From: Balanoglossus misakiensis
Taxonomy: Eukaryota; Animalia; Hemichordata
Assembly: GCA_040954595.2 (NCBI GenBank)
Contig: CM082597.2
Coordinates: forward strand, 1,408,886-1,472,885
Direction: 5' to 3'
Length of the DNA: 64,000 nucleotides
The position numbers and the translations under genes are program-made. The notes beneath the pieces were generated by a model, which saw only the letters and a program-made list of their open reading frames with translations, was not told where the DNA came from and did no database searches. This document shows, piece by piece, positions 9,257-58,035 of the stretch (position 1 is the first letter of the stretch; each line of letters begins with the position of its first letter).

Positions 9257-12200
9257 ATGGTCTCTGTTAATATGCGCACAGTGCGAAAAATGCTGAAATC
9301 TCGCGTGATCCTGTTGTTGATGTTACTGTCCGTTATATCTTTCCTCCACCTGATGTTGAACGGAAACTTCCACATTGAAGTGTCGTCGACCAAACCAACA
9401 GAACCGCCGAAACCAAAGGTATGTTATTGCAATTCTTAATTCCTTAAAGGGGTTATATTTTAAACTAGAGTATACAACAAATAACACATTTCTTCGGGGA
9501 GTCAATTCAACACTGTCCAGTTCTCCCATCGGCCCACAATGCACTGCGAACTATCAAGCGCTGTTTACTTCCGGGTCAGAAAGTTGCAGAGTTTTCAATC
9601 GCGTTAGTATAGAGGCACTAGTCTTTCAGTTTCTCGTAGGACTTAAGCTAATCTCACAACAATTGAGATGACAACCTGTTTTATCGGGGATTACATGGTT
9701 TTCCTTATAAACTACTTCAGAGTAACGGCGAGAATCTTTGTATACTCTGATGTTTCAATCATCAGTTCTGTGTTACATGCATGTTTTATATAACCTTTGC
9801 AACGATTTGACATGTTGAATTTCACGTCCCTACGACATATTTCGTTTGTTCATCTCACCTGGTCTATCAATTTCAAATTATGGCCTTCTTGTATAACTTC
9901 GTTCAAGTCGACGTTCTTGAGTGACAGGTCGTCGACCTTTTACGTGATGTTCCAAATAATTGTTGGGCAGCAGGTCCCTGAGAATGTCGAATGGTATCTG
10001 CATTCATAGACACCTGTGGATGCCAGAATGATGGTACCCTATCGAAATCAATATATGCATGCACTGCAACGTACATATGTCACATTCCTTAGGGGCTTTA
10101 ACCACATGTTTTGCATTCTCACACTTCAAAGCGAAAGCAACAGTTGGTGTTTTCTCATCATGGTAATTTAAAAAGGGCTAAAAGCCTTTGGAATTCCCTT
10201 TCGAATCTAAATTAGCGGTGGCTGTGCTGAAAAGCAGTAGAATTAAATGGTCGTAAAGTTTTGAATGGCGTAATTGATCCGACAAATCGATCAAGATAAT
10301 TAACTTTTCTCTTTGATTTGATTTCCGAAACTCGATACAACGGTGGTATGGTAATCACTCTTTCATGTAACTTCCGAAAGTTGACTACTCTTAAGTTTTA
10401 TGATTTGCGTGTTTTTCTTCATCAGATTTGCTATTTATATTTCCAAAGCCCTCTGTAAAACTGAACTATCTATAAACTGCATCAAAAAGTCACTATGGCG
10501 TGGACACATATTGCTGAAACTTTTATAGTAGAGGTCGTGGCAGAAAATAGAAAATCTTGCGATAGGACTGCACTGCTTTAGCGTAACTAAACGGGTCAAC
10601 TCTCGAGATGGGGGGGGGGGAGAGGGCAACCAACGCCCACCTCTGTCCTTCACGAACAAACTCGTCATCAAGATACAATCGATAACCGATGAACGCAAGT
10701 CGCATTCCGCGCGGATTAAGACAACCAGATCGTGCTGTGCTGTAAATTAGTCTCTCTAAATGTTGCCTTTCATTTAGGATTGCCGTCGTATTCAATAATT
10801 CCACATCGATTTTTGAATACAATGTCCTTTAAATTCGAGATGGTGGGAGATCCAGTGTAGTGTTCAATAACACAGGCGGGTGGTTTGGACGCCAGTATAT
10901 CAATGCAAATTAAACAACTCTATAGGTGTGCAATAGTTATACTAAACATAATGGAGATGTGTCTATACAAAGTACATGTAGTAAGACGCCTTGTCTAGCC
11001 CTTCGTCGTCGTCCGCTCTCACAGGTCGTTGGCACGACCACAGTCCCCTTGACAGGCGAAGATGGGCCTTCGTATACCATTTGGGTTGAATGACATGAAA
11101 TCTTTGTTATTTTGACAATTGCTGTATTGAAAGCAAGGTCTACCTTATGTGTAAAGGCGATTTGAAGGAAAAACCAACTACATTTTTATAAGTTATGCTT
11201 GAGTCCCAAGTTGAAAAACCTTTGGGTCATTGTTATGTTAGACAATGGTATACTGTGACGATTAACATTGATACTGAGAGTGCCTGGAAACGGGCCAGAT
11301 GCAATCAGGCTAAAAAGAATAAAATGACATCTGCGTTTATCTGTTCCGTTGTCTATTGTCAACCGTAATGACTTGCTTATCTTACGAGGTTTCAGGTAAA
11401 TTAGGGCAGTTAATTGCCACGTAACCACAGACATCTTTATTCAGTATGGCTGAATCGTTTCTGAAGCGTCTAAACAACGCACGGTGGCGCTCTTTTTGGC
11501 TGATTCTAATACAAAACTTTCTGTCTTTATTTTTTTTCAGGCTTTAAGGCCAATATCACAATTTTTCGAGAAAGACCAACCGCATTTCGGAAACAGCAAA
11601 AACCGCTACCTATTTCCACTGTACGACATCTTCGATGGTGGACCCAACTGGGCCTTTTCGATGTTTAGAGTCGGCGCCCATCTTGCCCTATACCAGAACA
11701 GGAGTGTAGTCACCGTGCCGTTCCGCGTTCACGACAGACTTCAAGAAAACGTGATTTTCCAACTGAAGACGGTGGAGGAAACTCTCGACGTGGATGATCT
11801 GAAGAAAGTTGTACCGGTGGCCACGGTTGAAGAGTTCTACAATGCTTGCAACGATTCCCTGAACGATCTGGAGAGAAAGATTATGGAGCATATATTGAAC
11901 GAGGATATGGAAAACAGCAAACGATTCTGGGGAATGTTTTACGCCCTCGACGAGCTCCGTAAGTCCTACCCGCCTAAGGTGGTTGTCAACTGGGAGGACC
12001 CCAAGGAGAAACACGAACTCTTCCTGAAGGAGACAGCCGATGTGCGATGTCTACTCATCTCCAAAAGTGAAGACATTGTCCCCCTGATAACGCCCTATCA
12101 TGAAGAAATTGACAACTACATAGACAAGCATTTTATCTGGTCGTCTTACATCCGTAAAATGGTCGACCCGATCTTTGACAAAATTTGCGACGGTCAAGAT

Positions 12201-14303
12201 TTTGCGGTCGTGCACTGGAGAAACAGGACAGGTGAAAAGTAAGTAAAGTCACGTGATAGTTCTGTTTTCTTGAACAATGCATGATGGGTACCACAAGGTG
12301 AAAAGGGTTGAGATGTATGTATATGTTATATTTGGCACAGGCTCGCGATTTTCTAACTAACCACATGACTTCTCATTCTTTACTTGCCGAGGTATTTGTA
12401 AAGAAACTTGATTTCTTGTCTCTTGCTGTCTTATTTTTTCAACACATCTTACGTGTCACAAACTGTGAGCTTGACGCCTGGGGTGCACCGCTTCATCGTT
12501 GAGGCCGGTGTCTTTGTAGGGGTACAGTTGGTTCCATTAACTGGTGAATGTTTATGAAATGAGTGTTTTGAAGTCATCAGTAGCTCTTGTTTATCAGCCA
12601 TCGCAAAGTCAACTTGAAAAGTCGCTTGGTAAACTTGAGATGCAAATTCTCTTTTCAGCCCAATAGGGGAATGTAGCAAAATCGCTCGGTAAACGTGTGA
12701 TGTAACAGTCTTTTTCTTTATAATGGGTTGTGCGTGGCGGGTCTGTGTACAAAGAAGCGTTAAGTGCGAGCGAGGCCAGTTCACACAAAAGTGTGTTATG
12801 AGATCACCTTGGGCTAACATCCATCAACAACTATCCAAAAGGAACAACAACTTGAAGCAAGAGACAAATATATCCCCCCTCCCGTGTGTGTACCATAATT
12901 TTGTGCGATCTCACGAGATGACGTTTATGTGATCTACGACATCACACGCGCACCCCATGTGAACATTTTAGCGAACAAACTTTACCAAAATGAGGGTCGG
13001 CAATAAATTGTCGTCTGCTGTAAATAAGGATGGTGACAGCAGACGACAAAATGTGTCCAACTAGCTTGCGAAATCTTGTCCTAGTTTCCAGCGGTCTGCG
13101 TCTTTGACACCACGGCCAGTGACCCCGTTTCATTTCCCTTGAGAAATAATCCCTGTTGTATAATTTCACTTCATGCTTTCACTCTTCAATACAAAGGGCA
13201 TTGTGCATCGCCTGTCGCCTTGAAATGTTTCATGCTGGGTGGCTTTGGCAGATTAAGTTCAACAATAAACGTCTGTTGCATTGGGAAACGAAAGTGCCTA
13301 CGCATTTTCACACTAATTCAAAATTCTACTTTCAAACCGTTATGTTATTCTATTCGCTGCTGAGATGTTCACATTTGCTTGTTACTTCTACACTTGTATA
13401 AGAAAAATATGAGAACATCTTGAATCTAAATATTTGTGGGTGCACACCAAAATGAGTGTGCGCAATTTGTCGATTGATTGCAGTGTACTTAATTATGGAC
13501 GCCATTTTGTCTTTTTCAGCTGCATAGCTGGTAGCAACTGGGCGCCAAATATCTGCAAAGAAAAAGAACAAGCCGAAGTGAAAGCACTGATTGGACTCTC
13601 AGAGCAGATAGCTCGTTCCATAGCAGACTACGTCAAAGCTCTGAATTACAAATGTATTTACATCTCATATCCGCCGTTTGAACAGGTAACCTAGTCAGTT
13701 TTAGATTTATTTGATGACATTTTTTATCAAATCTGTCGAAATGATACATTTGGTCGTGTACGCCGTACAGGTTTTTAATGTGGAACAACCCTAACTGTAC
13801 TTCCTGACTTTTAACTTTCATCACTTTTCAGGACCTAATACACAGACTTGATAATCTTGTACCGAAGATTTTTTCACTGAGGGACGTTTATAAAATGTCA
13901 CCCGAGATCACCAGTCACAAAGATGATCTTTACATTATATCCATGGTGGAACAAGAAATCTCTCTCAGTGAGTATTACGTATTGACCTTTGAACTAAATA
14001 TGGCTGCTGCATGGAAAATGAACCAAACATCGCCCTCACCCGTCAAGACAGACCCAATGTGACAAAATCAAGTGTATTTTGTCTAACTAAAATTTTGGAG
14101 GTATGGTATGAAAATATAATTAAGCAGAGGTCTCTTATAAAGTCTTTTTTTCATTACTACTTTCAGGAGCGGACTTTTTCATCGGTTGGCGGGTGTCAAG
14201 TTGGTCTGGTATTGTCGCCAGAATGAGGGACGCCAAAAACAGACCACGTGATGTATTGTCGGTACTTCCTGGTATGCCGAAAGAGCTTGAGCAGTTTGAG
14301 TAA
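9257..14303 (+). CDS. O-fucosyltransferase family (POFUT-like, GT-B fold) type II membrane protein
   Basis: Exons 9257-9418 (signal anchor VILLLMLLSVISFLHLML), 11541-12239, ~13520-13685, ~13831-13968, 14167-14303. Motifs YQNRSVVTVPF, FAVVHWRNR, IYISYP and MVEQEISLRADFFIGWRVSSWS resemble the O-FucT motifs LNRTLVLPP, AVHLRR, VFIAT and IDQWIC..ARFFIGT..STFS. Confidence 0.75.
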
Positions 14304-17365: not shown

Positions 17366-18985
17366 ATGGCGGACGTCAGCTCCATGCACGTGATGATTTC
17401 GTATAACTGGGACCATCAGAGTCAAGTTGTTCTCATTAAAGAGAAACTTGAGAGGAAAGGCTATAAAGTATGGATAGATTTGGATAATATGCGTGGTAGG
17501 TGACTCGTACATTTAGTTACTATATTATAATAATTTGGTTTTGATGCACAATTTATTCTGACAACATTGAATGTTTAATGATATTTTTGTCCATTTTTTC
17601 CTCATACCATACCAGGCAACATAAACAGAGCGATGGCGGAAGGTGTTGAAGGCGCATGCGTAATTCTCATGTGTGTGACCGAGGCCTACAAAAGTTCTTT
17701 CAATTGTGAGAAGGAGGCTGGTTATGCGGACTCCCTCAGAAAACCCATAATTCCACTCAAACTAGAACGAGACGTGAGGTTCGGTAAGACAACTAAAATA
17801 AACTTAACGAAAAAAATACACCTTAAAGCCAAACTTTTTTCCTTCCATGTTGTGCTGAAGGCAACTTCCGAATCTTTCAGGGGGGGGGGGGGGGCTAATT
17901 GTTATTCAAAATGGCTGCCATCACACCACGTTCAAATGCAGTAACTGTAAATTGGCCATGCTTTATTACAGATGGTTGGGTGGGACCGATCGTCGGGAGT
18001 AAACTTTGGTTTGACTTCTCTGAAATGCACCAACTGGACCAAAAGATTGAGAGCCTTGATGCGGAAATGACGTCAACAGGGATGAAGGACTTGGCCTTCA
18101 ACCCGGATGCAAAACCTCGTAAGTTTTACGACATAATTTTGCAATCAAAATACCACAGCGATAAAGGAATTCGAAGTGGCCGGGTTTCCAAACTTCCCAC
18201 ATTTTTAAATATATTGTCTGTCAATATAGTAAGGACGCATTTCATTTGAAAGAATTCGCTTTTTGTAACAGATTTTGAAAATTCATTTACAGATTTTATG
18301 TCTCTCGATATGGATGGCATTTATAATTGGCTCAAGGATTTGTCCATCGATGACGTCACAGCAAAGATCTTCAGAGAAAATTGTGTCACTGGGAAAGACT
18401 TGGCTGTCCTTTCAAAGGAGGAGCTTGTTGGTAAAGACTTCAAAATCCGCCCGTTTGTTGCCACCAAGATTCTACGTAACAGGGATGAAGCGATGGGGGT
18501 GCTTCCGCCAGACATAACAGCCAGGTGTAGCACGCCCTCTGAGATGGGGATCACTTCCGGTGCGGCCGAGGAAGAAAGCAAGAAGAAGGCGACGACAAGG
18601 AAAGAGAAACTCTCAGCTACAACAACTTCAGTGAGAACGCAACGTAGGTGTTACATTTTCTCGGTTACTGAAGAAGCAGTCACGCAGAAGATTTCGCATT
18701 TGTGATCACGTTTTTCAGTCATAATTTAGAAGAAAAGATTTGGAGTCAGGCAGGAGTAAGTGATAGAGTAACATAGGCCTATTCTGAACTGGCACTATCT
18801 AGAAGTCATAGTATAATATGTACTATCATGATGTTCATGTTTGTCTCTGTTTAATAGCAACATCGAAAATACAATACAAGAAAGGTGACCGAGTAGAAGT
18901 ATATTGGTCAAGCTCGTGGTTCAAAGCGGAAGTCATAGATGAAGGACCACGACATCTACTGAAGGTCTGAGTTTTGAGAACACAC

Positions 18986-19079
<94 letters not shown>

Positions 19080-20474
19080 GAGAGGGGAGAGAGAGAGAGG
19101 TACTGGTTTTGCATTGATATATCGAGGAGGAAGGGGGGATTTCCACAATGATGTAATCTTCTACATTCCCAACATTTACATTTCTTTAGATCCATTACGA
19201 AGGATGGGCAAGCTCCTACGATGAAAAAGTCGACATTGCCGATTGTTCGACAAAGGATGGATCCATGCTTAAAGATATTAAAAAGGTAATGGTTTCTTCT
19301 GTACTTCCAAGCAGAAATTACCTAAATGTTGTTATCGATGCTGCATGCTGTGCTAAGTTTTGATATAATGTGCATGTTGTAGAGTTCATTAGAGGGAAGC
19401 GAAAGAAAACGGAAGTTGTTGGCAGCCATGTTTGATAGCGCCCCCATAAGAGCAATATTTCTTTTTTTCCAGGTTAAGATCGGCGACAAACTGACTTATA
19501 ACTCCTATGACGTAAGCGTGGTTGAAATCATCACATGCTGTTGCAAGATCCGTTACGATGGTTACGGGTCGTCATGGGATACGTGGGTTTTACCCGATGA
19601 AGTGAAGCTGGTTTCCAGGGGAACCGCGAGTAGTGAGAGTAAGACGAGCGCTTCAGAATCGTTGATGCAGAATGTCAAGTACAAGGTCGGCGACCCTGTT
19701 TCTATATGGTGGTCGAAGACGTGGTACTCAGGCAAGGTGATAGAAAATGGACCACGCATTTCATTTAAGGTGACTGATCTCAACGTCAGAATAGTTGTGT
19801 GCGGTTCTCCTCGACTAGATTCAAACGAGCGCCCGCACATGGCTGAATTTTCAGTTTCGGATCCAGTCTCATCCTGAATGATAGGTTACATATGCATGTT
19901 TTCGAGACGTGATTTCGAAGATGAATATAAAGCAAAGATTGTCTACTTACCATATTTTGAAAAAGAAATATTTCTAGCAATTACATTTTGGTCTCATCTC
20001 AGGATATTGATCTTTTCCCAGATACATTACGATGGTTGGGACTCTTCTTATGACGAAAGCGTTGACGTCACAAAATGTAAATGGAGCGATGGAACGAAAA
20101 TAAACGATCCTATCAAGGTGAGGTTAGAAAAAAATTGCCATTTTTTAAACCGAAATTTTGTATGTAATATAAAGCTGAAACATATGATGTTCGCTCTAAA
20201 ATGCGGCCTGAAATTTTGCTCGATTCCCACATGTACATGTATATCGGCAGCTGCAGTTTATAAAGCTTCAGTTAAATAATATTTCGATTTACTGTCCTAT
20301 TTTCTATTATATGTCAAGGTGAAAAAGGGCGACAAGTTGAAAACAGAATGGGGGACCTCTTGGTACGACTCGACGGTGTTAGAAGTCACATTTGCGGTGT
20401 GTAAGGTGCGATACGACAACTATGGGACAAATTGGGACACGTGGTGTACACCTGATGAAGTGAAGCCCAAGTGA
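17366..20474 (+). CDS. TIR_2 - SAM - four Tudor-knot/chromo-barrel-like domain protein
   Basis: Nine GT-AG exons in frame: 17366-17495, 17616-17783, 17972-18118, 18272-18643, 18858-18964, 19190-19285, 19473-19769, 20022-20117, 20319-20474. TIR: HVMISYNWDHQ..GYKVWID..MAEGVEGA..YKSSFNCEKEAGYA..KPIIPL. SAM: IYNWLKDL..IFRENCVTGKDLAVLSKEEL..KI. Tudor-like: KGDRVEVYW..W..AEV..KIHYEGW..YDE and KIRYDGYGSSWDTWV, each present twice. Confidence 0.85.
18989..19077 (+). repeat. (GA)n microsatellite in intron of TIR-SAM-Tudor gene
   Basis: Long uninterrupted GA run visible in the sequence. Confidence 0.97.
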
Positions 20475-21863: not shown

Positions 21864-23150
21864 ATGGCGAGTAAAAAGAAAGGTTCGCACGTGATGCTGT
21901 CGTATTGTTGGGGCGATAACCAAGAACTGGTGAAGAAAATCAAGACGGAGTTGAACAAGAGAGGATACCAGACGTGGATGGATTTGGATCAAATGGCAGG
22001 TCAGGAAGTTATCCCTTGTGACCTTGATACACCTTGTCTGTCTGTCTGTTCGTCTCGCTCTGTCTGTCTGTCTGTCTCTCTCTCTCACTGTCATTATTGA
22101 GCCGTATACCACTCTCACACACGAGGAAAATAACAGGCCTCCACGTTTCATTTGTGAACAGGTAACATCAACCGAGCAATGGCAGAGGGCGTAGAGGGCG
22201 CCTATGCTGTACTCATGTGCGTTGGTCAAATGTACATGAAATCGAGAAATTGCGAGAAAGAGGCTGGCTACGCAGATTCAAAACAGAAACCGATTTTGAC
22301 GGTCATTGTGGACAATGGCCTCGTCCTTGGTAAGTAAAGGTTCAATATGCCATGAACACATAGTATGATATTCAAATTATTGCTGTCTTCCTCCCTGCAT
22401 ATTGTACTCAGATGACCTATGTGTAAATCACGTGACCGGTGACCCGGAAGGTCAAAGTTTTACATAGCACATCACTTGCAGTTGTCTCCCCTCATCCTCA
22501 TGAGCAAAACTATTATTCTATTTTCAGAGGGCTGGGCAGGGCTGATTAACGGCAGTCGCCTCTATTATGATTTCTCGGACCCAGCAAATTTCGAGAGTAA
22601 ATTGGAAGAGTTGGACAAGGCGTTGAAACCCATTAAAGGAGTTGCAGAATCCGAAGGAAAGGGTACGTCATAAATTTCATAAAATGAAAACAAAATGGCC
22701 GACTTCCGTCACACTACTGAGAGACAACTTACAACGTTACTGCATATCATAAACAGACAATCACCTATGTTTCTTTATTGTAGAATTGAAATAACGTAAT
22801 TTTAGTCCACATGATCGTAAAAATACGTGTTGAATTTCTTTTGCATTAGCTTCTTATTAATTATCGAATGCAATCTCTGTATTACCTACAGTTTCTAATA
22901 ACAATTTTTACTTCACAGGGACAGAGAGTAAACCCAAGAAACAACGTGAGTACAGAATAATTTCATACACCTATGTCTTCTGTTCTGTTTATTGGTTTAC
23001 TGGTCCATTTATAGGCGTAGGGGTGGGGCTCAACAGAACAGGAATTTGACAAGCGTGGGTGTTCTTGTTTCTTCAGCACGGCGAACGGAAAAAGAGAGAC
23101 TTTCGCAGCTGTCGGCAGCACACCTCGGTGAATTTGATCTTCAGGGGTGA
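21864..23150 (+). CDS. TIR_2-only protein, tandem paralog of the upstream TIR gene
   Basis: Exons 21864-21999, 22162-22329, 22528-22662, 22919-22945, 23077-23150: HVMLSYCWGDNQ..GYQTWMDLDQMAG|NINRAMAEGVEGA..SRNCEKEAGYA..KPIL|EGWAGLINGSRLYYDFS. The first three intron positions and phases match the upstream gene. The last two exons are less certain. Confidence 0.85.
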
Positions 23151-23436: not shown

Positions 23437-24595
23437 CTAACAACTTAGCTTTAAGATCACACACCCGATTAAAGTGTACAGATAAAACTGTGAGCATATG
23501 AAAATTGGTGCCTCGCTTGGCGTTGGTGATGACATCACGGTCTCGTCCGCCATTGTTGTTGGGTCTGGCGCACGCGCGTTCACCGTGAGATTGGTAGTTC
23601 CGGTTTCTTGGACGACTTGCATTCCGATAATATATCTGGCGGTGCATTCGTATTGGCCCTCGTCGTATTCTGTAATTGTAGAAATTTTAAGGGAACCATT
23701 GTTGACGATAGCGTACCTGCAAAAGAATCAGTTATAATCAAGGCATTATGGAATTATATTATGGAATTTAATTGTGCAATGTGCACATTTTCATCACGTG
23801 ACTCTCGTGCTTCCATATTTACCTGTCATCAACTGAGGTTGTCGTGAGGTCAGACATCACCATCCTGACAAGAAAAGTCGTTGTACTGTCTTCTAGCACT
23901 CTTTTCCACTCCACCACGCTACTTGCGATGCTGTCAGGCACACCAGAGTAAGCACAAAACAAAATGGCGTCGGCGTCGCCTACCGTTGCATTTTGCTGTT
24001 CATTGACAACCACTTCCAGTGACGTCACCAGAAAGATGACTGAAAATATAGGTTTAAGACATATTGAGCATATTCTACATATCCTCCAGATTGATTTTTA
24101 ACGTCAATATTGTCTTATTATGAGGCCAGGAGGTCAAAAGGTAAAAAACCAACAGCAGGTTACTCGATACTCGATACTACGCGAATTATTAACACCGCTT
24201 GGTTCCATAACTTTGTTCTCAGTTTACAGAATCGAAACATTACAGCTATCACAAGTATTTTCGATTTTCTTATAAACAATGTGCGGCTAAGCAAAATTTT
24301 TGTGTGACTATTAAAGGGTGGGGCTTTTATTTACATCGAAGCAGAATACTGAAAATTGAATCTTTTCTAAATTTAAAGAAAACTTTTTGATTCGGTGTAG
24401 CTGTCAGTGTTTATTGGGCCAACACGTTACTGGACAGATATGAGCTTTCTTATATACACGTATCGACATACTTGTACATAGAGTTATAGTTTACATGTCC
24501 ATGTTTTACTGAGAATCATCAAATCTAAATTTCTATAAAAATGGGTGATCCGACTTACCCTCAAAGACCAATAAGAACCGCAGTATCGTCGCCAT
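23437..24595 (-). CDS. Single V-set Ig domain protein A (signal peptide, split V exon, GPI-like tail)
   Basis: Leader exon 24559-24595 (MATILRFLLVFE); half-V exon 23823-24039 (LFCAYSG..VEWKR); exon 23437-23716 (SLKISTITEYDEGQYEC, Thr/Pro stalk, hydrophobic C-terminus). Confidence 0.85.
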
Positions 24596-25064
24596 GGATA
24601 CACCGTGAGTGATAATCGTACTCTTCGGAACGCAACAGAATTCGTTGTTGGAGCAACCTGACTGCAGTACTTGCAATTATAAGTCTTCCTTCTTGAGGTC
24701 AATAAAGTTCAGACGTTTTAAGGAATGGTTCATTTCGCACGTCAGGGTGGGGCACCACAAAAGCAACTGTGAAGCTTTTGTATTAAGTATTGTAATTTAT
24801 TGTAAATAAATCCTCGAAAAACATAATTGAATCATTAGTTCAAAAATTAGAAGAATTCACCAAATGAACGCGAAAACAAAAATGTGCACAGTGGGATCTT
24901 CATGTTATCCGCGTTGGGGGCGCTTGCGTTACCAGAGTGTGCTCAGTCATTTTTCTACTTTAGCGGCTTTCTAACATTAGAATTTTTTAAAACATTCCCA
25001 TTACATGCTACAGAGTTAAATCGTTGCTGGCGACTCCTTGTCACACACTTTTTGAGATTTGAAC

Positions 25065-26752
25065 TTAATTGAAATCCCATAAACCTAGACTGAACAGAGC
25101 GACTAAGAGCAACGCGTACATGTAAAACGGACCACTGCTGATAGTGTGAGCACTGTCTGGGTCTGATATTTTGTGCGGAGCCGGTTTTGTGGTGTCGTCT
25201 GCGGGACTTTTTGACTTCGGAATTGGCTTCGTGGCGGCCATCTTGGTCGGCTTCACAGTCTCCCCTGGGAGTGATCGCTTGGTGGCGCTTTGAGTAGATG
25301 CTGCCCTTGGCTTTCCTGCTGGTGACCCCGTGGTTGGTTCTGTGGCCATGTGCGCGTGCGTGAACTCATGCGCGATCACCACCAGCAGGACTGTTGAGGA
25401 ATCTGTGGTCACTCTTCCTTCATAGAGATACCTAACGCTGCAGATGTGTTCCGCATTGTCATCCAAGCCTACATTGCTTATTTGCAACGATGCACTGTCG
25501 ACGATGACGTACCTGCAGGTTGAAATTGTGAAAAGGGACTTGAACTTGGTAAACAAAAAGGTGATTTTTACTATGAAAACAAGACGGTGAATTTTCGCGG
25601 TTTACCTTCTATCTGTGTACGTCGGCATTCCACCATCAACAGCCTTCATCGCGAGAGTTACCGGCGAACCGGTGGGAGCGACTCTTTTCCATTCCAGGGT
25701 CACACTTGTAGCGCCCTCAGGCACGCCCGAGTAGGAGCAATGCAGAATGGTGGTGCTGTGTTGAGTGGCATTTTGCTCAGCGTTCGTTGTCACTTCTAGT
25801 GACGTCACAAGACAAATACCTGCAACAGATGGATGAAAAGAAAGATGGCCGCTTAGTAATTCGGATCGTTGGTGGCGTGCGATTAAATCTTGCAGAATCA
25901 TAATTCTTTACACAAATGACTTGAATGGAACGTCGATGCAATGTAAATTCGTCTCGATGTCAGAAATAGAGCTACTGCAGAAGCTGTGAAAATACCTCCT
26001 GATGTATAGAAAAGAACTCGAACGAGTGTCCACATTCTTATCTGATGATAAAGATGGCGACAGGTGGACTCTGTGACGTCAGACGTGGACCATCAATCAC
26101 CAGAAGCTATTTGTGACACGTGACACAGAAAAGCTCGCGCACAAATCGATTTCGCAGATGTGTGTTCCAACTTCTGTCTACACGTCACATGAGATAAATC
26201 AGCAGGGAGTTATCTTCGGAATCTGTTCAAACTTTCTGGCTGAATTATGCTTTTTGCGTTTTGGTGCCGGCAACTTCATATATTTGTAGTCATACCAGCT
26301 TCATTACTAACAGTTTTTTTGTTAGAAGGGAAGCCTTCATCTCAGTAATTTTGCCAGTTCTATCTAATAGTAATATTGCCGAATAATTGGTACTTAAATT
26401 ATTTTCTGATCACCAGAGACAGATGGCCACTGTAAGATACTATGCAAAAATCGCCATACCAACTTTAGGAGTGTAAAACCCAGCAATACACAGTTTATGC
26501 CATGCACTTCACCGTTCGTAGTTTTTTGCGTTGATAATTTTAAGTGATTTGATAGTTATTCATTCATAAAGTTTTTAAGAACAGGTGAACTGTAAAAGAA
26601 AACTGGTCTTTTTATGGATTGTCAAACCAGCTACATACCCTGTATTCACACACAAAGTGACGATGAAAAGTATATAACTATTTTTCGTCTCGTTTTGACA
26701 TACAACGGTGACCTATCGACTTACCTGTGAAAAGAAACAGCAATCGAAGCAT
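25065..26752 (-). CDS. Single V-set Ig domain protein B with long mucin-like stalk and GPI-like tail
   Basis: Leader 26725-26752 (MLRLLFLFT); half-V 25606-25819 (LHCSYSG..LEWKR); exon 25065-25512 (ASLQISNVGLDDNAEHIC, S/T/P/K stalk, SSG followed by YMYALLLVALFSLGLW). Confidence 0.85.
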
Positions 26753-27398
26753 GTTGACGGGTGTAATGAAGCCACGCGCCGCACTTTCCTTGGTGTTGCT
26801 TCAAAACCTCGTCTTGACGGATCTCACTGCAGGCTTTGCAAGAATGTTTTGCCGTGCTATCACGTCGCTTCAAGGGATGGGTGAAAATACAACCCGGGGG
26901 AGGGGTTACATGATCATAAATACTGTCTTGTGAATCTGCAACTGGCTTAGCAACCTCGCTCACGGCCACTCTTGCTCACACGTCTCAGGCGATTTATAAC
27001 TCGCTAAAACAACCACTCAAAAAGTTTAAGTTGCGACATGGATGACGAATATGAAAACCTCGGTTCCTATCAATAATTTATGAGGGGATAGTTATATTTA
27101 TTACTCACAGATGCTTCACAATCATTTAGTGGGCGGTGCGAAAATACAAATGCCTCTCTAGACTGAAAGAGCGCCCGCAAACGACTGAGTCTTTTAGTCT
27201 AATGTCTCTCACTCAGAACGGAATTCTATACCGTGCGTACAGTGGAGTGGTTGAACTAGAATAAGTCACAAATATTGTTTTAAAACATTACCGCAAAAGC
27301 GGAAAGCAAAAATACTGTTTTTGATAAGTTCTTTCTTTGTCACAAACTCAAAATGAAGTACATTTTGTCCCTCAAAGGCAGCATAGGAAACTATTCTG

Positions 27399-27790
27399 TC
27401 ACGTGGGTGAATCTAAACGATGACGTAACACTCGCGCTTGATGACGCCGGTGCACCTGTGTGGTTTGCATGATGGCGTCGGGCATGCTTACTGTAAGGTT
27501 CGTCCGCGCTGAAATTCTGACCAGACGCGTGCCGGTAATATATTTGGCTTCGCAGACGTATGTGCCTTCATCGTCTTCGGTTATTGTGGAAATCCTACCT
27601 CGCATCGCTGTGTGTGGGTCTGCCACGAGGCAGAACTTTCCTTACGAGAAACTCTGTGGAATTGTTTGTGTGAACCCTCTCCCAGTCCACGGTCACACTG
27701 CTGACGTTGGTCGCTACGCTGGAATAGGAGCAATTCAAGATGGCGGTGTCGTCGCCGACCTGGGCATTCTGATTACATGTATCGGGCACA
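27399..27790 (-). pseudogene. V-set Ig pseudogene C (internal deletion fusing the two half-V exons out of frame)
   Basis: NQNAQVGDDTAILNCSYS..VDWERV..SDAR is followed at the old donor (AG|GTAG) directly by ISTITEDDEGTYVC..TNLTV in another frame. The intron and the start of the second half-exon are missing, and no leader exon was found. Confidence 0.75.
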
Positions 27791-28221
27791 AATAAGGTGG
27801 GTGACCTCACGTTGTAAATACCAGTCTAAATAATTATTTTAGACACACAGATAAAGACCAGCGTGAATTATTTATCAAGTTTTAATAAGCAGTAGAAACT
27901 GCAGCTTTGTTTTGACCAAAAATTTCAGGGAATAAACTGTTCCATGCATCAAATCAAATGTAGCTTCTATTCAATAGCCAAATCATGATATTCGATTTAC
28001 AAATGCAACTTGTGTATTTTAACTTGAAGCAGATCATTGTAGCTTTCTTTAAGTCCGAGCATGAGTTCATTTTTCATTATAGCAATATTTGTAAGTTCTA
28101 ACTGGTTCTGTTGAGGTTTACTAAAGTTTCGGCTATTTTCATGTGCCCATCATTCTATGAAAATGTGAGTCTCTTGGTGAATAAAATTTCACCGCGTAAA
28201 TGTTAAGTTAGAATACCAAAA

Positions 28222-30803
28222 TTACAAGCCAAATTTGTACACAACAAACGCAATCCAAGATGACATGCATAAGTGAAACATCCCGGATGTCAGTGTTGGC
28301 GCACCGCTTGGCGTTGTGACGGGGCCTGGTTCCTCGGTCGGCAGATCTGTTACCATGACGACCACAGTGGCCGATTCTGCCACTTCGCCGCCATTGCTCG
28401 GTGTGTATCTCACTGTACATGTATAGTTCCCGGCGTCGTCAGCGACAATGTCGGTTAGTTTCAGAGAAGCTTTGTTGATGATATGACACCTTCAAAATAA
28501 TAAAAGTAGGAAAAAATGTTTAAGCTATAGGCCTAAGACTGTATCACCCTAAACAACAAAGCAAAACAAAGCAAAACACAACAAAACAAAACAAAACAAA
28601 ATCTCGTTGCTGTGTTAACCGGTGTCTGCGCGAGACTTGCAACGTATAGTTACCTGCCACAATTGGAAGTGGATCTTCCCTCCTTGACATTCTTGCTGAC
28701 AAGCAATCGTCTGCTGTCCGGCAGTAACTCCTTTCTCCACTCCACTACTTCACTCAAGGCGTCATCGGGAACACCCGAGTAGCTGCAGTACATGATGGTG
28801 CTGGCGTCGCCGACCTTGGCGCTGTGCATTGGCGTCACAGTTACTTCCAGTGACGTCACGACACAGACAGCTATAACAGGAAAGATTCATGTGGATTAAA
28901 TTTGGCCTTTATTTGCAATCTTTGTTCGAAAAATCGGGTCGACTCGTACCGGTATGAGCCATAGGCGCTACGTGTTATCCGAAAGCACTATGATGCAGCT
29001 TGAATTATGTACGTATCTATACGTAGGGACTCGTATCAATGACTCCAATGTCAGTGGTATACAGGCATATCATCATAGCTGTGGGAAAACCCAACACGTT
29101 CATTGACCTCGTCGGGACGCCAGTCTAAACAAACTAGAAACATGATGTACTGTCTATAGGGTACTTGCTCAGCCAGGGTTCACGCAAACAGAGTAAAATA
29201 ACAGTAATTTAAAGAGCAGTTGTACTCATGAAATTCAACCAAAATGGCGACTGCCTGCATGGACAACAATGGCCGATTTCATTGTCATACGTGTTGGGAT
29301 CAGTTAACAAATATTTTTAAACCGACATACAATATTTTCGCTAACATTAGGCTGCATTCACAAACACCTCTGGAGGGGGGGGCGGGAGAATTGAGGGGGG
29401 GGATTTGAAAAAATTGAGGGTATGTAAGGGGGGGGATTTGAAATAATTTAGGGACTGAAAGGGGGGGACTTGAAAAATTTTAACGACTAAATATTTATTT
29501 TGAGTCCACAAAAATGCAGTTTCGCGCCCTTTATTTTACAAAATTTTCTAATGTGGGAGGGGGACACCCCCTCCCACACCCACCCCCTCCATTCATCAAC
29601 ACCTTTCAATCATTGACTGGTTTATCTAGTGTCCCAGGTCAGGGGACTTGCCCCACCCCATGATAACTTTGAGCGGCGACGGTTAAATTTGTCCTCCCCA
29701 ACATACCGGTAGTTGAGTTAATTTGCTTTTGCCGGGTTCATTAAAATGCAGCTTTGAGCTCTGTATTTTAGAAAATTTTCTTACGTGGGAGGGGGACACC
29801 CCCTCCCAAACCCACCCCCTTCAATTCTCGGTTTACAATGTCTCCCAACACAGAATACAAATATATGTACTTAAAAAATAAAAACAATGTTCAGTTTTAA
29901 TACCCACTGATGAGGGGAAACATCAGTTTCAAATTCTTTTCATGGGAGCGCTGTTTTTCTTTTTACAAGATAGATAGGTGATGTGTTTTGCTCTGTGAAA
30001 GAAAATGGGGGGGGGATTTCAAAATTTTGGCAGTTCGGAAGGGGGGGATTTGAAAATATTGGCAGTTCGGAAGGGGGGCATGTGAAAATTAGCGGTAAAA
30101 AAAATTGAATTCTCCCGCCCCCCCCTCCAGAGGTGTTTGTGAATGCAGCCTTAGTAACATAGCTCATGGCCGAAATCGTCTGTTAGTGTTTTCAAGCAAG
30201 GACACACAGACTGAGCAACGGGAAGTCTCAGATGTAGACTAATAAATACCATGACAAGCCATTAAAGTAACGTGTATATGATTCGATATCACTGATCATC
30301 TTACAAATGCATTTGACAGTTATTGGTGTTTATTTTTGGTGTATGACGTATAGCTGAATGTGTTGCAGAAGTTATCACCCGATAGCATAGACGCTCGTCT
30401 ATGATATACAACCATCGTGTTTATCATGGTGGCGTTGGGAGTTTCAATTGGCAAATGATGTTGAGTTAGGAGTTCTCTGTGACCATAAACATTAAAATGT
30501 TAGGATTCAGATCTTCTGTTTACACAGAATGATGAAATCGTCAAAATCGTGAAGTTTTAGGCCAATATTCGTCTTTAACGCCTTGATATATATATTTGTC
30601 ATAACAGGGTGTGGACATAGCTACATCCTGACACAAGTGTTTGGCATACATAGATTAATAGTCATGTACAAGTTGTTAAGATAATTTGAAGAGTTCGTGT
30701 GCACTTGTCTCAGTAATTTCGACGAGACTTGATGAAAAACTTTAAACATCAAAATAAATAACTACGACTTACCCGCCAAAAGTAGGAAGATTTTCAACAT
30801 CAT
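28222..30803 (-). CDS. Single V-set Ig domain protein D (signal peptide, split V exon, GPI-like tail)
   Basis: Leader 30773-30803 (MMLKIFLLLA); half-V 28654-28870 (MYCSYSG..VEWRK..SNCGR); exon 28222-28489 (CHIINKASLKLTDIVADDAGNYTC, stalk, hydrophobic tail). Confidence 0.85.
29350..30150. mobile_element. Non-autonomous PIF/Harbinger-type MITE (~800 bp) in intron 1 of Ig gene D
   Basis: TIR GGCTGCATTCACAAACACCTCTGGAGGGGGGGGCGGGAGAATT at the left end and its reverse complement at the right end; TTA on both flanks (29347-29349, 30151-30153); subterminal G-tract/GATTTGAAA repeats; no transposase ORF. Confidence 0.88.
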
Positions 30804-32105
30804 GTTGTTCGTTAGCTCTAAGGTCACACCGAGTCCCTGGACGAAATGCAGGCGTTTAATGATGACATATATGTAATGCAGTAAGTATTTACGCTATGTG
30901 AGGTCATAGCTCCTCGTGTTGTTGGACCGACTGCATTTTCTGGCGGGAAGGGCTGGTTGTATGTCTGTGTTTAAAAGTTGTCAGAGGTATCTGTCTGTCT
31001 GTCTGTGTCTGTATGTCGTCATTGTTTGATAAGTTCCAGCACACTCCGTCTACAGACGCAAACTCCATATTGAAGATAAGAAATATATACGTGTATTTTT
31101 ATAATCTTTGCCATCACACAAAAACGCATATCCGTTTTCACCAACCCACTTTGGTACTTACATAACAATTGCAATTAGTACGAATACAATCACGTGACTT
31201 CTGGCAGCAGAAATGACCTCGAAATTCGATCTCATATATGAATTTAATGAGCAAAAAACCTCTGACATAACTAAACGCCAAACAATGTAAAATACTAAGT
31301 AAATGAATATCGCTTTTTTATCACTACAATTTATACATTTATCAAGTCAAACTGTGGCGAGTATTGCCTCTTTTGTTTAGTACAGTAACGAATAAGGAAA
31401 GTCGAAATAATTTAAAACGGCTATATAAAAATCAATTATAGATCCACGATTAGGTGTAAAACTAATCTGCCATCAAGAAAATAAAATAAAATAACGTAAA
31501 TGTGCAATTGCGGAAGAGTTTCAAATTAACTCTAGTGAAAGAATAATCTTATCCCATTTATAAACAAATCTTGTCGGTAAAGGCTTAAATGGAACATTGG
31601 TAAACTGTACCAAATATGAACCTACGGTTAATACAAGCTTTGGCAAGTCTGTTTTTCTCAAACTGTTTTCATCATTTCTATATTGAAAATCTATAACACT
31701 AATCATTCATAAAATAGAGTTCTTGTACGAAGATAGGCCTATATAACCCAACTCCCTACAAAGCCGTTATTTTGTTAAAATGTCTAATTTAATATTACAT
31801 GTAACAAATCGGACTTTGAATCTAGGTTGAAAAAAATGTAATGTTGCTAGAATATAATAGGCCAATTCAATACACAACTGATAAACAGGTATGTGATTAC
31901 ATGATTATAGCAGTCTGTGTGCACTATGTATGGAAAGCGGTGGGGAACTAGTGTTTTGTGGTGGGTTACAAGCAAGCTAGTATAAGATGTATAAATAGAA
32001 AAGTTTGACGCGAATATCTTGCATTGTTGCGCTCAAATAAACAAAACTTAAGACTTTGAAACATCAAGGTGACATCAGAAAGAAAGAAATGAAACGAAAA
32101 AAGTG

Positions 32106-34245
32106 TTATCGCCACGTTGATAAAAAGACTGGCAAAAACGAAAGTAAAAATGTCATGAAAATCGAGGGCAGCATTAAGGCACTTGTGTCGTTGACACGAT
32201 CATCACCGTCGTCCCTGTTCTGACGAATAACATTTAATTGAACTGTGCTGTTAGCACTCGTTGACATTCCGGTGGTTGTTGTTATGACGATAAGACATCT
32301 GTAAAGGCCCTCATCTGCTTGCGTGAGGTTGCGGATTTCCAGAGATTGGTCACTCATGGCTGGGTTAAGGAGATATCTGCGAAAAGGAACATGTAATGAG
32401 TGACATGCCGGCCACTATAGACAGGTTCGACTGTGTACAGTTTTTTTAAACGTCAGTAACAGTAATAAAACAAATACCGCATTACTTTTGTGGTGAACTT
32501 GAGTACTGCACAACTCCACTGCCATGACCACCTCTGCAGAGAAGTTTCCAACCGTGTTCCACAGACGGGTCTTCTTTGCCCCAATCCACAGCGACTTTAC
32601 TTATCGCCTCTGGGTCCGGCCCTTCCCGATAATCACAGTATAGTTTGGTACCGTCACCATAATAAGCCTCGTGTACGTCTTTAGTTAATATTCCTAATCC
32701 ATCCGTGTATATAAGTCCTTCGGGAGAAAAAAGCAAAGTCGTCACTTCTCGCTATTTTACTCAGTCCACGCGCAGATACCCTCCCTCTGACGTCACCCTA
32801 GTTGACAACATCCGTGTACTGGATATGTGATTCGAAATGTAGATCTCCACGTGGTGGAGGGACCGTGCTCTAACCTAATATAACGTTCTCCTATCCGCTA
32901 TGGTTGATACCACGAGGCCCTTAGTACATCTAATTTAATTTGTCCATCGCATAAGGTCCTTTCTAATATGACCATTCAGAGACCATTGCATGAAATGCAA
33001 AGGGTGACGTCGGATTAAAGTTAGGCCCTGTAAATAACATACCGTAGAGTATCCAGGGCAGTATAAAAGCACAATGTTGAAGGTACAATGTTATACTATT
33101 GAACAGTACAGTCCCCTGTATATCATTATAAGCTACCGTTCCCAATGTATGTCGACAGCCCTTCCATATTTACAGGGCGTGGCGGTTTGAATATAAACCT
33201 TATTGTCGGTGTTCACGTGATCGTAAATATAAAACAAACACGATCATAAACATTGTGTCTGCAAATGTGAATGTTCATCGGGTGTAAAATTTCGAAAAAT
33301 TCAGTGATACTAGTTCTGATATAATGTCGTTTTTCGTCAATGTCATGTTACCTATAGCTGTAGTGAGCCGACGTTTCATCGTACTCGGCGCTCGTGTTAA
33401 CGATGTAAACCTAATTATAATTTTAATGACCTTCATCAATTAATGAAGTCCCACATCATCGTTAAATGAAATTAATTAATACGGCTCCATCACACGTGAA
33501 CTACATATGTTCTGAAAAGCAGATGGCAATATTAAAACATGGGCATTCACAAGTATTTCATATTTTGGCGTGTCTTTTCCGTATGGATGTTGGTGTCGGG
33601 CAAATGATTGCAGAACCTTCATCCTAAACCTAACGGCAAGGTAAGGTATTCGACCTTTCAACACAATAAACAAGCTAAATCGCCTTTTTTGTTGAATCTG
33701 TCTGAATGCGCGATTGCCAGCGTGTACAATATATATTATTCCCGAGTTCCACTGCAAAGTTGTCGCGAAATGAGTCAACAAACGCAGAATCCTAAAAATT
33801 CGCACACTTCACAGTCTGGTGAACTAAGCTTTCATACTCCAGGCGGGAAAATAGCGTGCAAAGTGCCCTTCGCTTGGACGGAATCGGTGATGACCGATGT
33901 CTCTCCCCATTCAGCGATGCAAAGATCCCATCTCAATGCGAACAATGCAAGCACACTGAGTACGGGCGACCTTCCCTGGCGCAGCCATTCACCCAAATAG
34001 CTGGCCTCCAACAATCAGACAAATTACCATATCAATACTACTCGCCCAACACTCATGTTATTGTAGGTGTGAATTACCCGAACAGAATGTGTGGTATTAG
34101 AATTCATTTCTGAACAAAAAAAGAAATATTTTTCAACCTAATACATGGTTTTCAACAAAACTAAATTCATTTTCAAGCACGACAAAATAAACCTACCTTC
34201 GAACACCAGCGCACATAACAAAACTAGATGGAGTGGCGATCTCAT
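32106..34245 (-). CDS. Single V-set Ig domain protein E (divergent member), GPI-like tail
   Basis: Leader 34197-34245 (MRSPLHLVLLCALVFE); half-V 32486-32717 (LYCDY..VDWGK); exon 32106-32376 (SLEIRNLTQADEGLYRC..VQLNV, tail LMLPSIFMTFLLSFLPVFL). Confidence 0.82.
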
Positions 34246-47300: not shown

Positions 47301-48710
47301 TCATCTATTGGGTCTCAATGTCTTCCACTCTTCAGGGGACACAGCCAAAGAACAGCAATACAGAGATGCATACAACAGAAGAGTACAGGCCATCAATGAC
47401 GTCATGTGGGACAGTGAGAAGGGCGCTTGGTTCGACTATGATCTGACGTCACAAACATTGAGGAAGGACAGCTTCTATCTAGCCTCGGTGGCGCCATTGT
47501 GGGCAGGATGCACTGATGACCCAAGTAAAGAGCAGTTGATATTAGATTACCTGAAGGTAAACTAAAATATCTAATGTTAAATTGCTCATGTCTAGCTGGT
47601 TGTGGCATAGAGATATGCTATTAATATACATGAGGTACTGGTTAATATTCAACAGCCATGTGTATCTGTCTGGAGGGTGTTGTTAACATCACACCATACC
47701 ATCCCAGGTGCTCGCCTCCATTTGTACTATTTATTCATGAACTATTCACTCTTATTCTTGTCTTTATGAAATATGCCACCTGACGATGTTGAACTTGGGG
47801 TTCACTGTGCAGACTATTAGTAACCCTTTGGTAATTTCACAGAGCGAAGATGTTTTAGATTACTACTGTGGTGTACCAACAACTGACAAAGAGAGCGGTG
47901 AACAGTGGGACTTCCCAAACGCCTGGCCTCCGTTGCAAGAAATGGTCATCACAGGGCTTGCCAAGTCCTCACTGCAAGAAGCACAGGATTTGGCTGAACG
48001 ACTTGCTCAAGGATGGACATACTGTAATTGGAAGACTTATGTGGACTCTGAAAATAACTATATGTATGAAAAGGTAAGTCTGGATATCTCAATTTGTTGT
48101 ATTTTATCAATTTTATTGAATGGCACCTTGCAATGTGTCTTTCATCAAAACAGACATTTTGTGAAATTTAAGTATATTCTCCTGTTTTTTACAGTATGAC
48201 GTCAACCAAGGTGCACCTGGTGGAGGAGGTGAATATGACGTACAGGTATGTCCATCTGTGTTTTTTTGCAGGTTAGACTTCCTGTGTTGAGCTTTGTTTC
48301 AAGTGGAAATTAAATTTATGGAAATCATTCAGCTTATTGAAACATGTGCAATGGTATACGGGTAGGTGTGTCACTGACTACTGATTTCCCCTTGGAAGAC
48401 TTTTACGCAAAATGTCAGTGATTATAGCAAGTGTTTCCATAAATATCATGCATGTGAGTCGCACATGTATTCATCATAAATTGTTCTTGTGGAACCAATG
48501 TTGATGAGATCACAGAAATTATGAACACGGACACTCCTTTGTCTGCAGCTTGGTTTTGGTTGGACCAATGGCGTCATCATACAGTTACTGAAGGAGTATG
48601 GAGACATACTAGTGGCTGAGCCAGTGAGCGCTGCCACCATGGTAACCGCGTCCACATTTGTACTTGTCAGTGCCTTGCCGTTGTTGATGGTTCAGCTGTT
48701 GGGTTTGTGA
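44339..48710 (+). CDS. TREH: Trehalase (GH37), signal peptide and GPI-like C-terminus
   Basis: About 13 exons with hallmark motifs VPGGRFREFYYWDSYW, PNGGRIYYTRRSQP, RPESYRED, AAESGWDFSSRW, QWDFPNAWPPLQ, GGGGEYDVQ and GFGWTNG. Confidence 0.96.
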
Positions 48711-51407: not shown

Positions 51408-51478
<71 letters not shown>

Positions 51479-51691
51479 TTTTCATTCATTTTATTTATTT
51501 ATTTTCATTTATTTATTTATTTATTTTTAGGACACTTGACACAGCTTCTTTGGGCAGATACAACCAGGATTGGTTGTGCTGTTGATTATAATTACGGGGC
51601 TCTCTTCGTTGCTTGTGAATATAACCCACCGGGTAATGTGTTCGGTCAGTACGAGGACAATGTGTTTCCACCACTATACAACAGGACTTAA
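49633..51691 (+). CDS. Secreted LDLa-LDLa-CAP (SCP/PR-1/CRISP) domain protein
   Basis: Exons ~49633-49719, 50028-50088, 50221-50415, 50567-50726, 50851-51129, 51248-51325, 51531-51691. LDLa: CIAESQICDDVVTCYDSSDEEDC and CISDKQLCDALGQCEEFNDEVGC. CAP: AHNYMR, GENLA, WYDE, GHLTQLLW, CEYNPPGN. Confidence 0.87.
51407..51528 (+). repeat. (TTTA)n microsatellite
   Basis: Tetranucleotide run directly before the last CAP exon acceptor. Confidence 0.93.

Positions 51692-56313: not shown

Positions 56314-58035
<1,722 letters not shown>

Follow-up and report, generated by a model that had tools for sequence, protein, structure and literature searches.

Within the 64,000 bp stretch of the Balanoglossus misakiensis genome analysed here (assembly GCA_040954595.2, contig CM082597.2, positions 1,408,886 to 1,472,885; hereafter the window, whose first nucleotide is position 1), gene A (17366..20474, + strand) codes for a protein of 515 amino acids (aa) in which an N-terminal TIR domain is followed by a SAM domain, a linker and two modules predicted to be double Tudors. 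This architecture is apparently undescribed and combines known parts according to a known logic. By analogy with TIR enzymes that cleave NAD+ (NADases) upon assembly, the gene A product may be a ligand-clustered, NAD+-cleaving intracellular sensor of methylated proteins, a reading that we put forward tentatively and rate somewhat short of an even chance. The gene structure, the evidence for each domain and the alternatives to this reading are presented below.

Gene Model and Orthologues

Gene A is a single, real gene, as held by the original prediction, which described it from the DNA sequence as an intact nine-exon gene, and its domain order is conserved. Its coding sequence runs from the ATG at 17366 to a stop codon that ends at 20474 and is distributed over exons 17366-17495, 17616-17783, 17972-18118, 18293-18643, 18858-18964, 19190-19285, 19473-19769, 20022-20117 and 20319-20474 (all +). 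The eight introns (120-252 bp) are all of the GT-AG type and no internal stop interrupts the 515-aa frame. An in-frame stop codon is found just 5′ of the ATG and an AATAAA sequence lies 43 bp 3′ of the termination codon. Introns 1-4 are all in phase 1, an organization consistent with exon shuffling at the boundary of the TIR-SAM cassette. When exons were compared individually to Pfam, exons 1 and 2 passed the TIR_2 threshold (29.8 and 30.0 bits; cut-off 28), exon 4 had a sub-threshold match to SAM_2 (E 0.0097) and weak Royal-family matches were obtained for four of the five Tudor exons, exon 7 having none. The absence of signal peptide, transmembrane segment and leucine-rich repeats, noted originally, was also found here: Kyte-Doolittle hydropathy identified no signal peptide or transmembrane segment (best 19-residue mean of 1.31, and of 0.22 for segments starting within the first 25 residues), and the Pfam scan of gene A exons and orthologues gave no leucine-rich repeat match. 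Intron 5 holds a long (AG)n microsatellite (18990-19077, +).

The gene A product is colinear with four database proteins (P0001-P0004) to which it aligns end to end (383, 339, 338 and 290 identities over 515 positions). They belong to Ptychodera (74% identity), Glandiceps (two proteins, 66% each) and Saccoglossus (56%), which represent three different enteropneust families. A search with exon 7 for longer proteins yielded three matches among 58 candidates, every one of them full-length from TIR to Tudor (Ptychodera flava XP_070547782; Glandiceps talaboti XP_077985373 and XP_077985599), while the search with the Tudor region yielded four among 545 candidates, adding Saccoglossus kowalevskii XP_077862931. 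All four records are uncharacterised computational RefSeq models (XP_). The Saccoglossus protein departs from the gene A product over its last ~30 residues, in what looks like a frame error of that model. Identity in the TIR domain across the three families is 73-87%. Within the searches made, the full TIR-SAM-double-Tudor architecture is confined to acorn worms.

The TIR Domain and Its Putative Catalytic Residue

Structures were predicted with AlphaFold2 for the 74%-identical Ptychodera orthologue and not for the product of gene A itself. Model 1 was obtained from a 4-sequence alignment; the predicted local distance difference test (pLDDT) of its TIR and SAM is below 50 and it was used for the Tudor part alone. 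Model 2, obtained from 41 sequences, has a mean pLDDT of 83.6 and a predicted template modelling score (pTM) of 0.44. Unrelated C-terminal domains were forced under the Tudor columns of its alignment, and the Tudor topology came out as in model 1. Model 2 defines a TIR at residues 6-132, a five-helix SAM at 153-213 and a disordered linker at 218-257. TIR, SAM and Tudor folds were thus all obtained for this orthologue and, together with the Pfam matches and the end-to-end orthologues, bear out the original assignment of a TIR, a SAM and four Royal-family repeats to one gene.

The TIR domain spans approximately aa 8-135 (exons 1-3; 17387..18078, +; its end is approximate) and was recognized by Pfam TIR_2 and by matches of the orthologue model to TIR folds with Z-scores of 16-18. 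The top matches of model 2 were SPARTA TIR-APAZ (Z 18.2, root-mean-square deviation (rmsd) 2.2, 135 residues aligned), Hydra TRR-2 (Z 17.4) and SARM1 (Z 16.4), and thus include assembly-activated NADases (SPARTA TIR-APAZ and SARM1). The gene A TIR carries the motif NCEKEAGYA, whose Glu77 (codon 17714..17716, +; helix αC) is the predicted catalytic residue; the corresponding helix of the orthologue model (70-81) contains a Glu at the catalytic position. In the family profile the Glu of the CEKE motif is aligned with the Glu at chain index 654 of C. elegans TIR-1 which, by adding the offset of 134 derived from the structural ranges, is E788. Mutation of E788 was reported to abolish the NADase activity of TIR-1, an activity tied to SAM oligomerisation and to multimerisation (PMC8923663). 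The Glu77 position is invariant in 159 of 159 related TIR domains, a figure inflated because the profile used to select the matches itself included that column; other conserved columns vary in this alignment (e.g., Trp15, 147/159), from which seven sequences with a short or missing TIR match had been excluded. According to these alignments Glu77 occupies the catalytic position (E642/E788) of NADase TIRs, in agreement with what had been proposed for this motif.

The SAM Domain and the Linker

A single SAM domain (aa 150-214; 18295..18489, +) is encoded by exon 4, flanked on both sides by phase-1 introns. Its five helices (153-162, 167-175, 180-185, 188-192 and 200-213 in the orthologue model) have pLDDT values above 90. 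The fold matches the SAM domains of PHC3 (Z 11.9, rmsd 1.6, 70 residues aligned), DGK-delta (Z 11.4) and SARM1 (Z 10.7), and a profile search matched those of liprin-beta1 and SARM1. The SAM domains of PHC3 and DGK-delta polymerise.

The SAM is followed by a 21-residue motif (aa 215-235; 18490..18552, +) that includes the sequence Ser-Thr-Pro-Ser and lies for the most part within the linker predicted to be disordered. In this post-SAM motif 16 of the 21 positions are invariant in five orthologues, compared to 0 of 21 in the spacer between the Tudor modules. It is conserved to the level of a folded domain despite its predicted disorder (pLDDT of the orthologue below 50 from residue 218). The linker profile matches solely these five proteins, the motif being specific to the Tudor-bearing subfamily; we speculate that it could be a phospho-switch or be bound by the Tudor pockets as a self-ligand. 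In four of five orthologues the linker is basic (isoelectric point (pI) 9.4-10.0), and a basic Lys/Arg motif found further along it is kept too. It is predicted to be flexible, with no confident packing of the Tudor modules on the TIR.

The Double-Tudor Modules

The four C-terminal repeats, initially proposed to be free Tudor-knots, are predicted instead to form two interdigitated, strand-swapped double Tudors with the topology of KDM4, ARID4 and YdhK. Module 1 covers aa 271-380 (exons 5 and 6 and the 5′ part of exon 7; 18872..19613, +) and module 2 covers aa 402-515 (3′ part of exon 7 and exons 8 and 9; 19677..20471, +). This interdigitated topology is otherwise known from KDM4, ARID4 and YdhK. 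Four independent Tudor-knots were rejected on the basis of the strand-swapped models and of the Tudor-knot profile (PF11717), which is above cut-off in one of the four orthologues.

The repeats correspond to a duplicated A-B pair, with alignment scores of 190 between A1 and A2, 137 between B1 and B2, and 42-73 between A and B repeats; two introns are found at matching positions in modules 1 and 2. Both models display unbroken strands of 17-20 residues (279-298 and 339-355) where a single Tudor has a hairpin, and in both the outer barrel is predicted to combine the first part of repeat A with the last part of repeat B. Foldseek identified the hybrid Tudors of KDM4 at probability 1.00 (KDM4B, TM 0.53), while VIA-align of the Tudor region gave YdhK (Z 9.2, rmsd 3.2, 111 residues aligned), ARID4B (Z 7.7) and RBBP1 (Z 7.3). 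These Z-scores were obtained with model 1; the fold searches with model 2 were filled with TIR and SAM rows. Single Tudors align ~50-60 residues across the whole pairs (265-378 and 396-508), as illustrated by the PHF19 Tudor over 265-378 (rmsd 1.9), and the pattern is specific although the Z-scores are close to the background of the tool.

Aromatic residues are found in 12 of 12 modules at five positions (Y304/Y435, W307/W438, Y345/Y480, Y361/Y496 and W371/W506) and an Asp-Glu pair, equivalent to D312-E313, is invariant across the same modules. In ptychoderid and spengelid proteins repeat 2 is short by ~5 residues, including the Trp present in repeat 4. Because this deletion removes the Trp position, one of the four pockets is probably degenerate and three look complete. 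Module 1 has a pI of 4.8-5.3 and a net charge of −2 to −6, and module 2 a pI of 5.9-8.5 and a net charge of −2 to +2 (5/5 orthologues in both cases), values that make the initially suggested detection of nucleic acids less likely. The hybrid Tudors of KDM4 bind H3K4me3 by an aromatic box, while ARID4A has no such box and binds DNA (PMC8038949). This contrast and the aromatic and acidic character of the gene A modules favour a cationic methylated ligand, methyl-lysine or methyl-arginine, rather than nucleic acid.

Two such double-Tudor modules are also found in a stand-alone protein of Ptychodera that has no TIR (XP_070547205, P0060). Its Atlas model shows the same strand-swapped pattern (DUF1541, TM 0.65 over 110 residues) and its sequence matches KDM4B weakly (E 0.004). 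P0060 is a possible donor or template of the Tudor modules of gene A. Searches of the ESM Atlas yielded only feature matches below 0.9 to bacterial, archaeal and eukaryotic Tudor/Agenet clusters, which we take as leads only, with no claim of a bacterial origin. Scans for the double-Tudor pattern, which are insensitive, left no confirmed module among 98 candidate stretches of prokaryotic genomes or among 80 of viral contigs; in the corresponding scan of metagenomes 11 of 88 stretches encode TIR relatives, with a Tudor module in 0 of the 11 loci. In bacteria, fusions of chromo-like repeats to caspase-like enzymes are likewise reported (PMC5906684).

The Acorn-Worm Cassette Family and Gene B

Sequence comparison places gene A in a radiation of TIR(-SAM) cassettes in acorn worms, apparently an undescribed family. 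The search with TIR-SAM gave 11 matches among 990 candidates. A profile search against 1.84 billion representatives was evaluated for the best 150 of 6619 matches, down to 131 bits, a range outside which weaker Tudor-only relatives, including the jellyfish proteins described below, would fall. Among the matches listed this N-terminal TIR, in most cases followed by the same SAM, is found on varied C-termini: protein-L-isoaspartate methyltransferase (PCMT), NHL or AIG1-like GTPase in Ptychodera, Death-NHL, NHL or Death in Glandiceps, and Death in Saccoglossus, some cassettes ending without extra domain. In Ptychodera, P0005 and P0006 (XP_070549523 and XP_070551315) carry the PCMT (196.9 bits in P0006, partial in P0005), which is an odd partner for a TIR, while P0016 (XP_070551313) has the AIG1-like GTPase (E 0.0004, sub-cut-off). 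Among the 158 database proteins examined, TIR and Tudor modules are found together in four and the modules alone in one. The most frequent architecture in the other matches listed is ARM-TIR(-SAM); Death-TIR-TIR, ankyrin and kinase fusions are also found. Two proteins, P0054 and P0057 (the latter from Paulinella), are TIR-SAM-ankyrin, so that the TIR-SAM-sensor order recurs beyond acorn worms; both fall outside the acorn-worm TIR group.

In a FastTree phylogeny of the 159 TIRs the cassettes cluster as 20 sequences (support 0.895), of which the 19 from databases are all named as enteropneust. A tree of 50 selected rows, which is unrooted, has the 18 hemichordate rows on one side of a branch whose support of 91/86 falls short of the starred level. 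In this tree the five Tudor-bearing proteins are united at 85/83, and in the quick tree at 97, with short branches.

Gene B (21864..23150, +) is a TIR-only paralogue of 179 aa that keeps the Glu and starts 1390 bp 3′ of the gene A stop codon. It is composed of exons 21864-21999, 22162-22329, 22528-22662, 22919-22945 and 23077-23150 (+), with an open frame, 4/4 GT-AG introns and TIR intron positions as in gene A. Its product shares 60% identity with Saccoglossus LOC100374327 (174 aa) and 54% with the gene A TIR (123 aa). These sequence comparisons identify gene B as the orthologue of LOC100374327; it is sister to P0026 at 100/100 in the 50-row tree. Gene B is a possible partner or amplifier of gene A.

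Comparison with Known TIR and Tudor Proteins

SARM1 and TIR-1 are the working analogy for the logic of an assembly-activated NADase. Their likeness to gene A lies in the Glu at the E642/E788 position and in the SAM (TIR fold Z 16.4, SAM Z 10.7). To this extent the SARM-like character of the original prediction holds; membership of the SARM1 family does not. Orthology to SARM1 was rejected because gene A has no ARM repeats (the TIR starts at residue 8, and ARM is found neither in 4/4 orthologues nor in the model), has one SAM placed after an N-terminal TIR where SARM1 and TIR-1 have tandem SAMs followed by a C-terminal TIR, and has a TIR of a different lineage (17-21% identity on structure; the family profile gives the TIR-1 TIR 12.4 bits). 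The published TIR atlas assigns SARM1 to clade 8 and calls clades 10-13 uncharacterised; its supplementary table 1 has two of the matches of the gene A TIR in clade 11, and three sea-urchin TIR-SAM rows of this type, two of them with ARM, are labelled clade 10 (PMC13142454). The ARM-TIR(-SAM) proteins of clades 10-11 share with gene A the TIR subfamily and the TIR-then-SAM order, and differ from the acorn-worm cassettes, which bear C-terminal domains instead of an N-terminal ARM. Since ARM-TIR(-SAM) is the commonest listed form of this separate lineage, the idea that the Tudor repeats replace the ARM sensor of SARM1 was abandoned: any ARM that was replaced would be that of the ARM-TIR(-SAM) family. 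TIR-SAM proteins were noted in amphioxus, with no Tudor, chromo or MBT domain in the available part of that report (PMC2575513). The catalytic non-TLR animal TIRs of Hurieva et al. (bioRxiv 10.64898/2026.04.20.719644) resemble gene A in the αC Glu and in their intracellular multidomain context. The main text of that work, in the part available, does not refer to Tudor, hemichordate, Saccoglossus or Ptychodera, and its supplementary tables may list relatives or include some that were assayed.

The modules of gene A have in common with KDM4A-C, ARID4A/B and Bacillus YdhK (DUF1541) the predicted strand-swapped topology, with 10-17% identity. Gene A differs by having two modules in tandem, joined to TIR-SAM and not to a demethylase or an ARID, and by aromatic sets that look present in both barrels and not in a single one. 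Fusions of a TIR to reader domains are not unique to acorn worms. In the atlas supplementary table 1, 19 rows carry a Tudor label, 17 of them in clade 13 and from choanoflagellates, cnidarians, ctenophores and Trichoplax; they include a Tudor-TIR-TIR-Tudor family conserved in choanoflagellates, cnidarians and ctenophores, while several proteins carry MBT, at least among the 6 of 22 MBT places examined, including a sponge TIR with MBTx9 (PMC13142454). These combinations of TIR and Royal family differ from gene A by their clades and domain orders, with no SAM listed and no hemichordate; the atlas main text has 0 uses of "tudor" and leaves the fusions undiscussed (PMC13142454). Two jellyfish proteins (Rhopilema P003315 and Sanderia P012900; rows 3637 and 3657) begin, as judged by eye, with what seems to be the double-Tudor module of gene A, followed by several unplaced TIRs and an EF-hand. 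Their copies match P0060 module 2 in 31 of 68 columns with one gap (eye count) and lack the second aromatic set. The original reader's failure to recognize the architecture is thus sustained for its full form and not for TIR plus Tudor or MBT fusions at large, which occur in other eukaryotes. No description of TIR-SAM-double-Tudor was found in the literature searched, which omits most subscription papers; the architecture is absent from the available parts of PMC7075850, PMC8662601 and the TeTIR preprint (10.64898/2026.09.21.753143).

Proposed Mechanism and Alternative Explanations

A sensor-oligomeriser-effector logic is reasonable for gene A by analogy with SARM1 and TIR-1. In the mechanism that we tentatively propose, the hybrid Tudor barrels would use their aromatic and acidic pockets to bind methyl-lysine or methyl-arginine peptides multivalently. 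Ligand binding would concentrate the protein and allow its SAM domains to self-associate, and the clustered TIRs would then assemble and cut NAD+, a signal of the cyclic ADP-ribose (cADPR) type being likelier than outright depletion. Exchangeable C-termini on one TIR(-SAM) cassette are as expected of an effector with swappable sensors. Slow evolution suggests a ligand that is conserved and probably host-made, such as an exposed or misplaced methylated protein, and not a fast-changing pathogen molecule. A wider proposition, which we consider rather doubtful, would make gene A a receptor that converts the reading of a methylation mark into an NAD+-derived signal and one of a set of TIR-SAM receptors with swappable sensors that dispense with nucleotide-binding leucine-rich repeat proteins (NLRs), the jellyfish coupling of TIR and Tudor having perhaps arisen independently.

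Several observations weigh against the sensor mechanism. All models are those of an orthologue. The SAM is single and not a tandem pair as in SARM1, and the start of its helix 5 lacks the usual Gly, which is found there in the canonical SAM motif. The pTM of 0.44 of model 2 reflects the lack of a contact that would explain a relay from Tudor binding to the TIR. The Tudor model relies on an alignment of only four sequences, its Z-scores of 7-9 are near the background of the tool, membership of the aromatic cage was read from the alignment and not from coordinates, and we know of no ligand for YdhK. Non-enzymatic TIRs are nearly as close in fold as the NADases (IL-1RAcPb, Z 15.9; MyD88, Z 15.3), and the TIR fold therefore leaves catalysis undecided. 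Moreover, the Glu is kept by most non-TLR animal TIRs, and of 61 Glu-bearing animal TIRs screened in E. coli only 12 showed activity; IL-1R9, IL-1R10 and TLR2 keep it without NADase activity (10.64898/2026.04.20.719644). A Glu-bearing animal TIR is thus neither surprising nor a proof of activity. The active non-TLR enzymes are mostly cADPR makers that usually leave NAD+ undepleted (10.64898/2026.04.20.719644), which makes the NAD+ depletion envisaged originally the less common outcome.

It is possible, though not probable, that the TIR is enzymatic and the Tudors serve solely as its anchor to chromatin, to germ granules or to some other methylated scaffold, activation depending on another input such as, possibly, the post-SAM Ser/Thr-Pro motif or gene B. 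The long disordered linker with no Tudor-TIR packing in the model, the 16/21 invariant positions of the post-SAM motif, the adjacent gene B with its Saccoglossus orthologue and a TIR identity of 73-87% across families, which fits a stable cellular role, are all in line with such anchoring. However, localisation and clustering can coexist, and the NHL, Death and AIG1-like C-termini of the sister cassettes are domains typical of immune proteins. We regard as rather unlikely an adaptor that is not, or barely, catalytic, in which TIR and SAM act as a scaffold that recruits further TIR proteins, for example gene B or the sister cassettes, to methylated targets, the Glu being structural or ancestral. 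The 49 of 61 Glu-bearing TIRs inactive in E. coli, the three receptors that keep the Glu without NADase activity (10.64898/2026.04.20.719644) and the fold scores of MyD88 and IL-1RAcPb, ~3 Z or less below the best, speak for it. The invariance of the Glu (159/159) speaks against it, as does the lack in gene A of a transmembrane segment or Death domain tying it to TLR signalling, and the negatives of the screen are weak because isolated TIRs were assayed for three products only (10.64898/2026.04.20.719644).

Exchangeable C-terminal domains on one cassette, the availability of P0060 as a possible template and the phase-1 intron at the cassette/Tudor junction would also suit an integrated decoy or guard receptor, whose Tudor modules (and the PCMT and AIG1-like domains of its sisters) mimic host proteins attacked by pathogens and whose binding triggers the TIR. 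This is improbable given that the Tudor-bearing group has short branches and only 1-2 copies found per species, unlike arms-race genes, that no STAND ATPase (NB-ARC/NACHT) is found in 4/4 orthologues and that there is no known pathogen factor. A filament formed on nucleic acid could activate the TIR if the interdigitated Tudors bound DNA or RNA as in ARID4A/B, whose double Tudors share the topology and bind DNA (PMC8038949), and a linker of pI 9.4-10.0 in 4/5 orthologues would assist; the net charges of the modules (−2 to −6 and −2 to +2, 5/5 orthologues) and the conserved aromatic and acidic positions, in contrast to the missing box of ARID4A, render it quite improbable. That TIR-SAM and Tudor exons are two genes joined by annotation is hardly credible and was rejected, even if the full-length records are all computational XP_ models and Ptychodera also has a Tudor gene that stands alone. 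Four records of three families are modelled with this junction, intron 4 (214 bp) is GT-AG and phase-compatible with no A[AT]TAAA inside, one such signal being found 43 bp beyond the termination codon, and no Met precedes the start of the Tudor in exon 5.

Catalytic TIRs have recently been described from across the invertebrates, in assays of isolated domains, a format that does not reveal what activates them. To the question of activation the gene A product offers a compact, soluble case with a candidate class of ligand, and its Tudor modules appear to represent a new family of the interdigitated double type. Should these modules prove to be sensors, an animal would couple the reading of methylation to NAD+ signalling, and the cassettes of acorn worms would provide a natural series in which one effector bears different sensors. 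Should the TIR prove inactive, or the Tudors no more than an anchor, gene A would be another lineage-specific shuffle of invertebrate TIR domains.

Neighbouring Genes

A coding gene lies 5′ of gene A (11454-13691, +); it includes an exon of 233 aa and gave no match in Pfam and, by eye, may resemble an O-fucosyltransferase-like protein. Directly 3′ of the TIR genes there is a run of small Ig V-set genes (23440-32751, −), several of which end in a hydrophobic C-terminal stretch. The window further includes a 1754-codon open frame with C2H2 zinc fingers (36974-42235, +), and exons of a trehalase (46324-48196, +), of a CAP-domain protein (50817-51688, +) and of a sulfotransferase (56317-56772, −).

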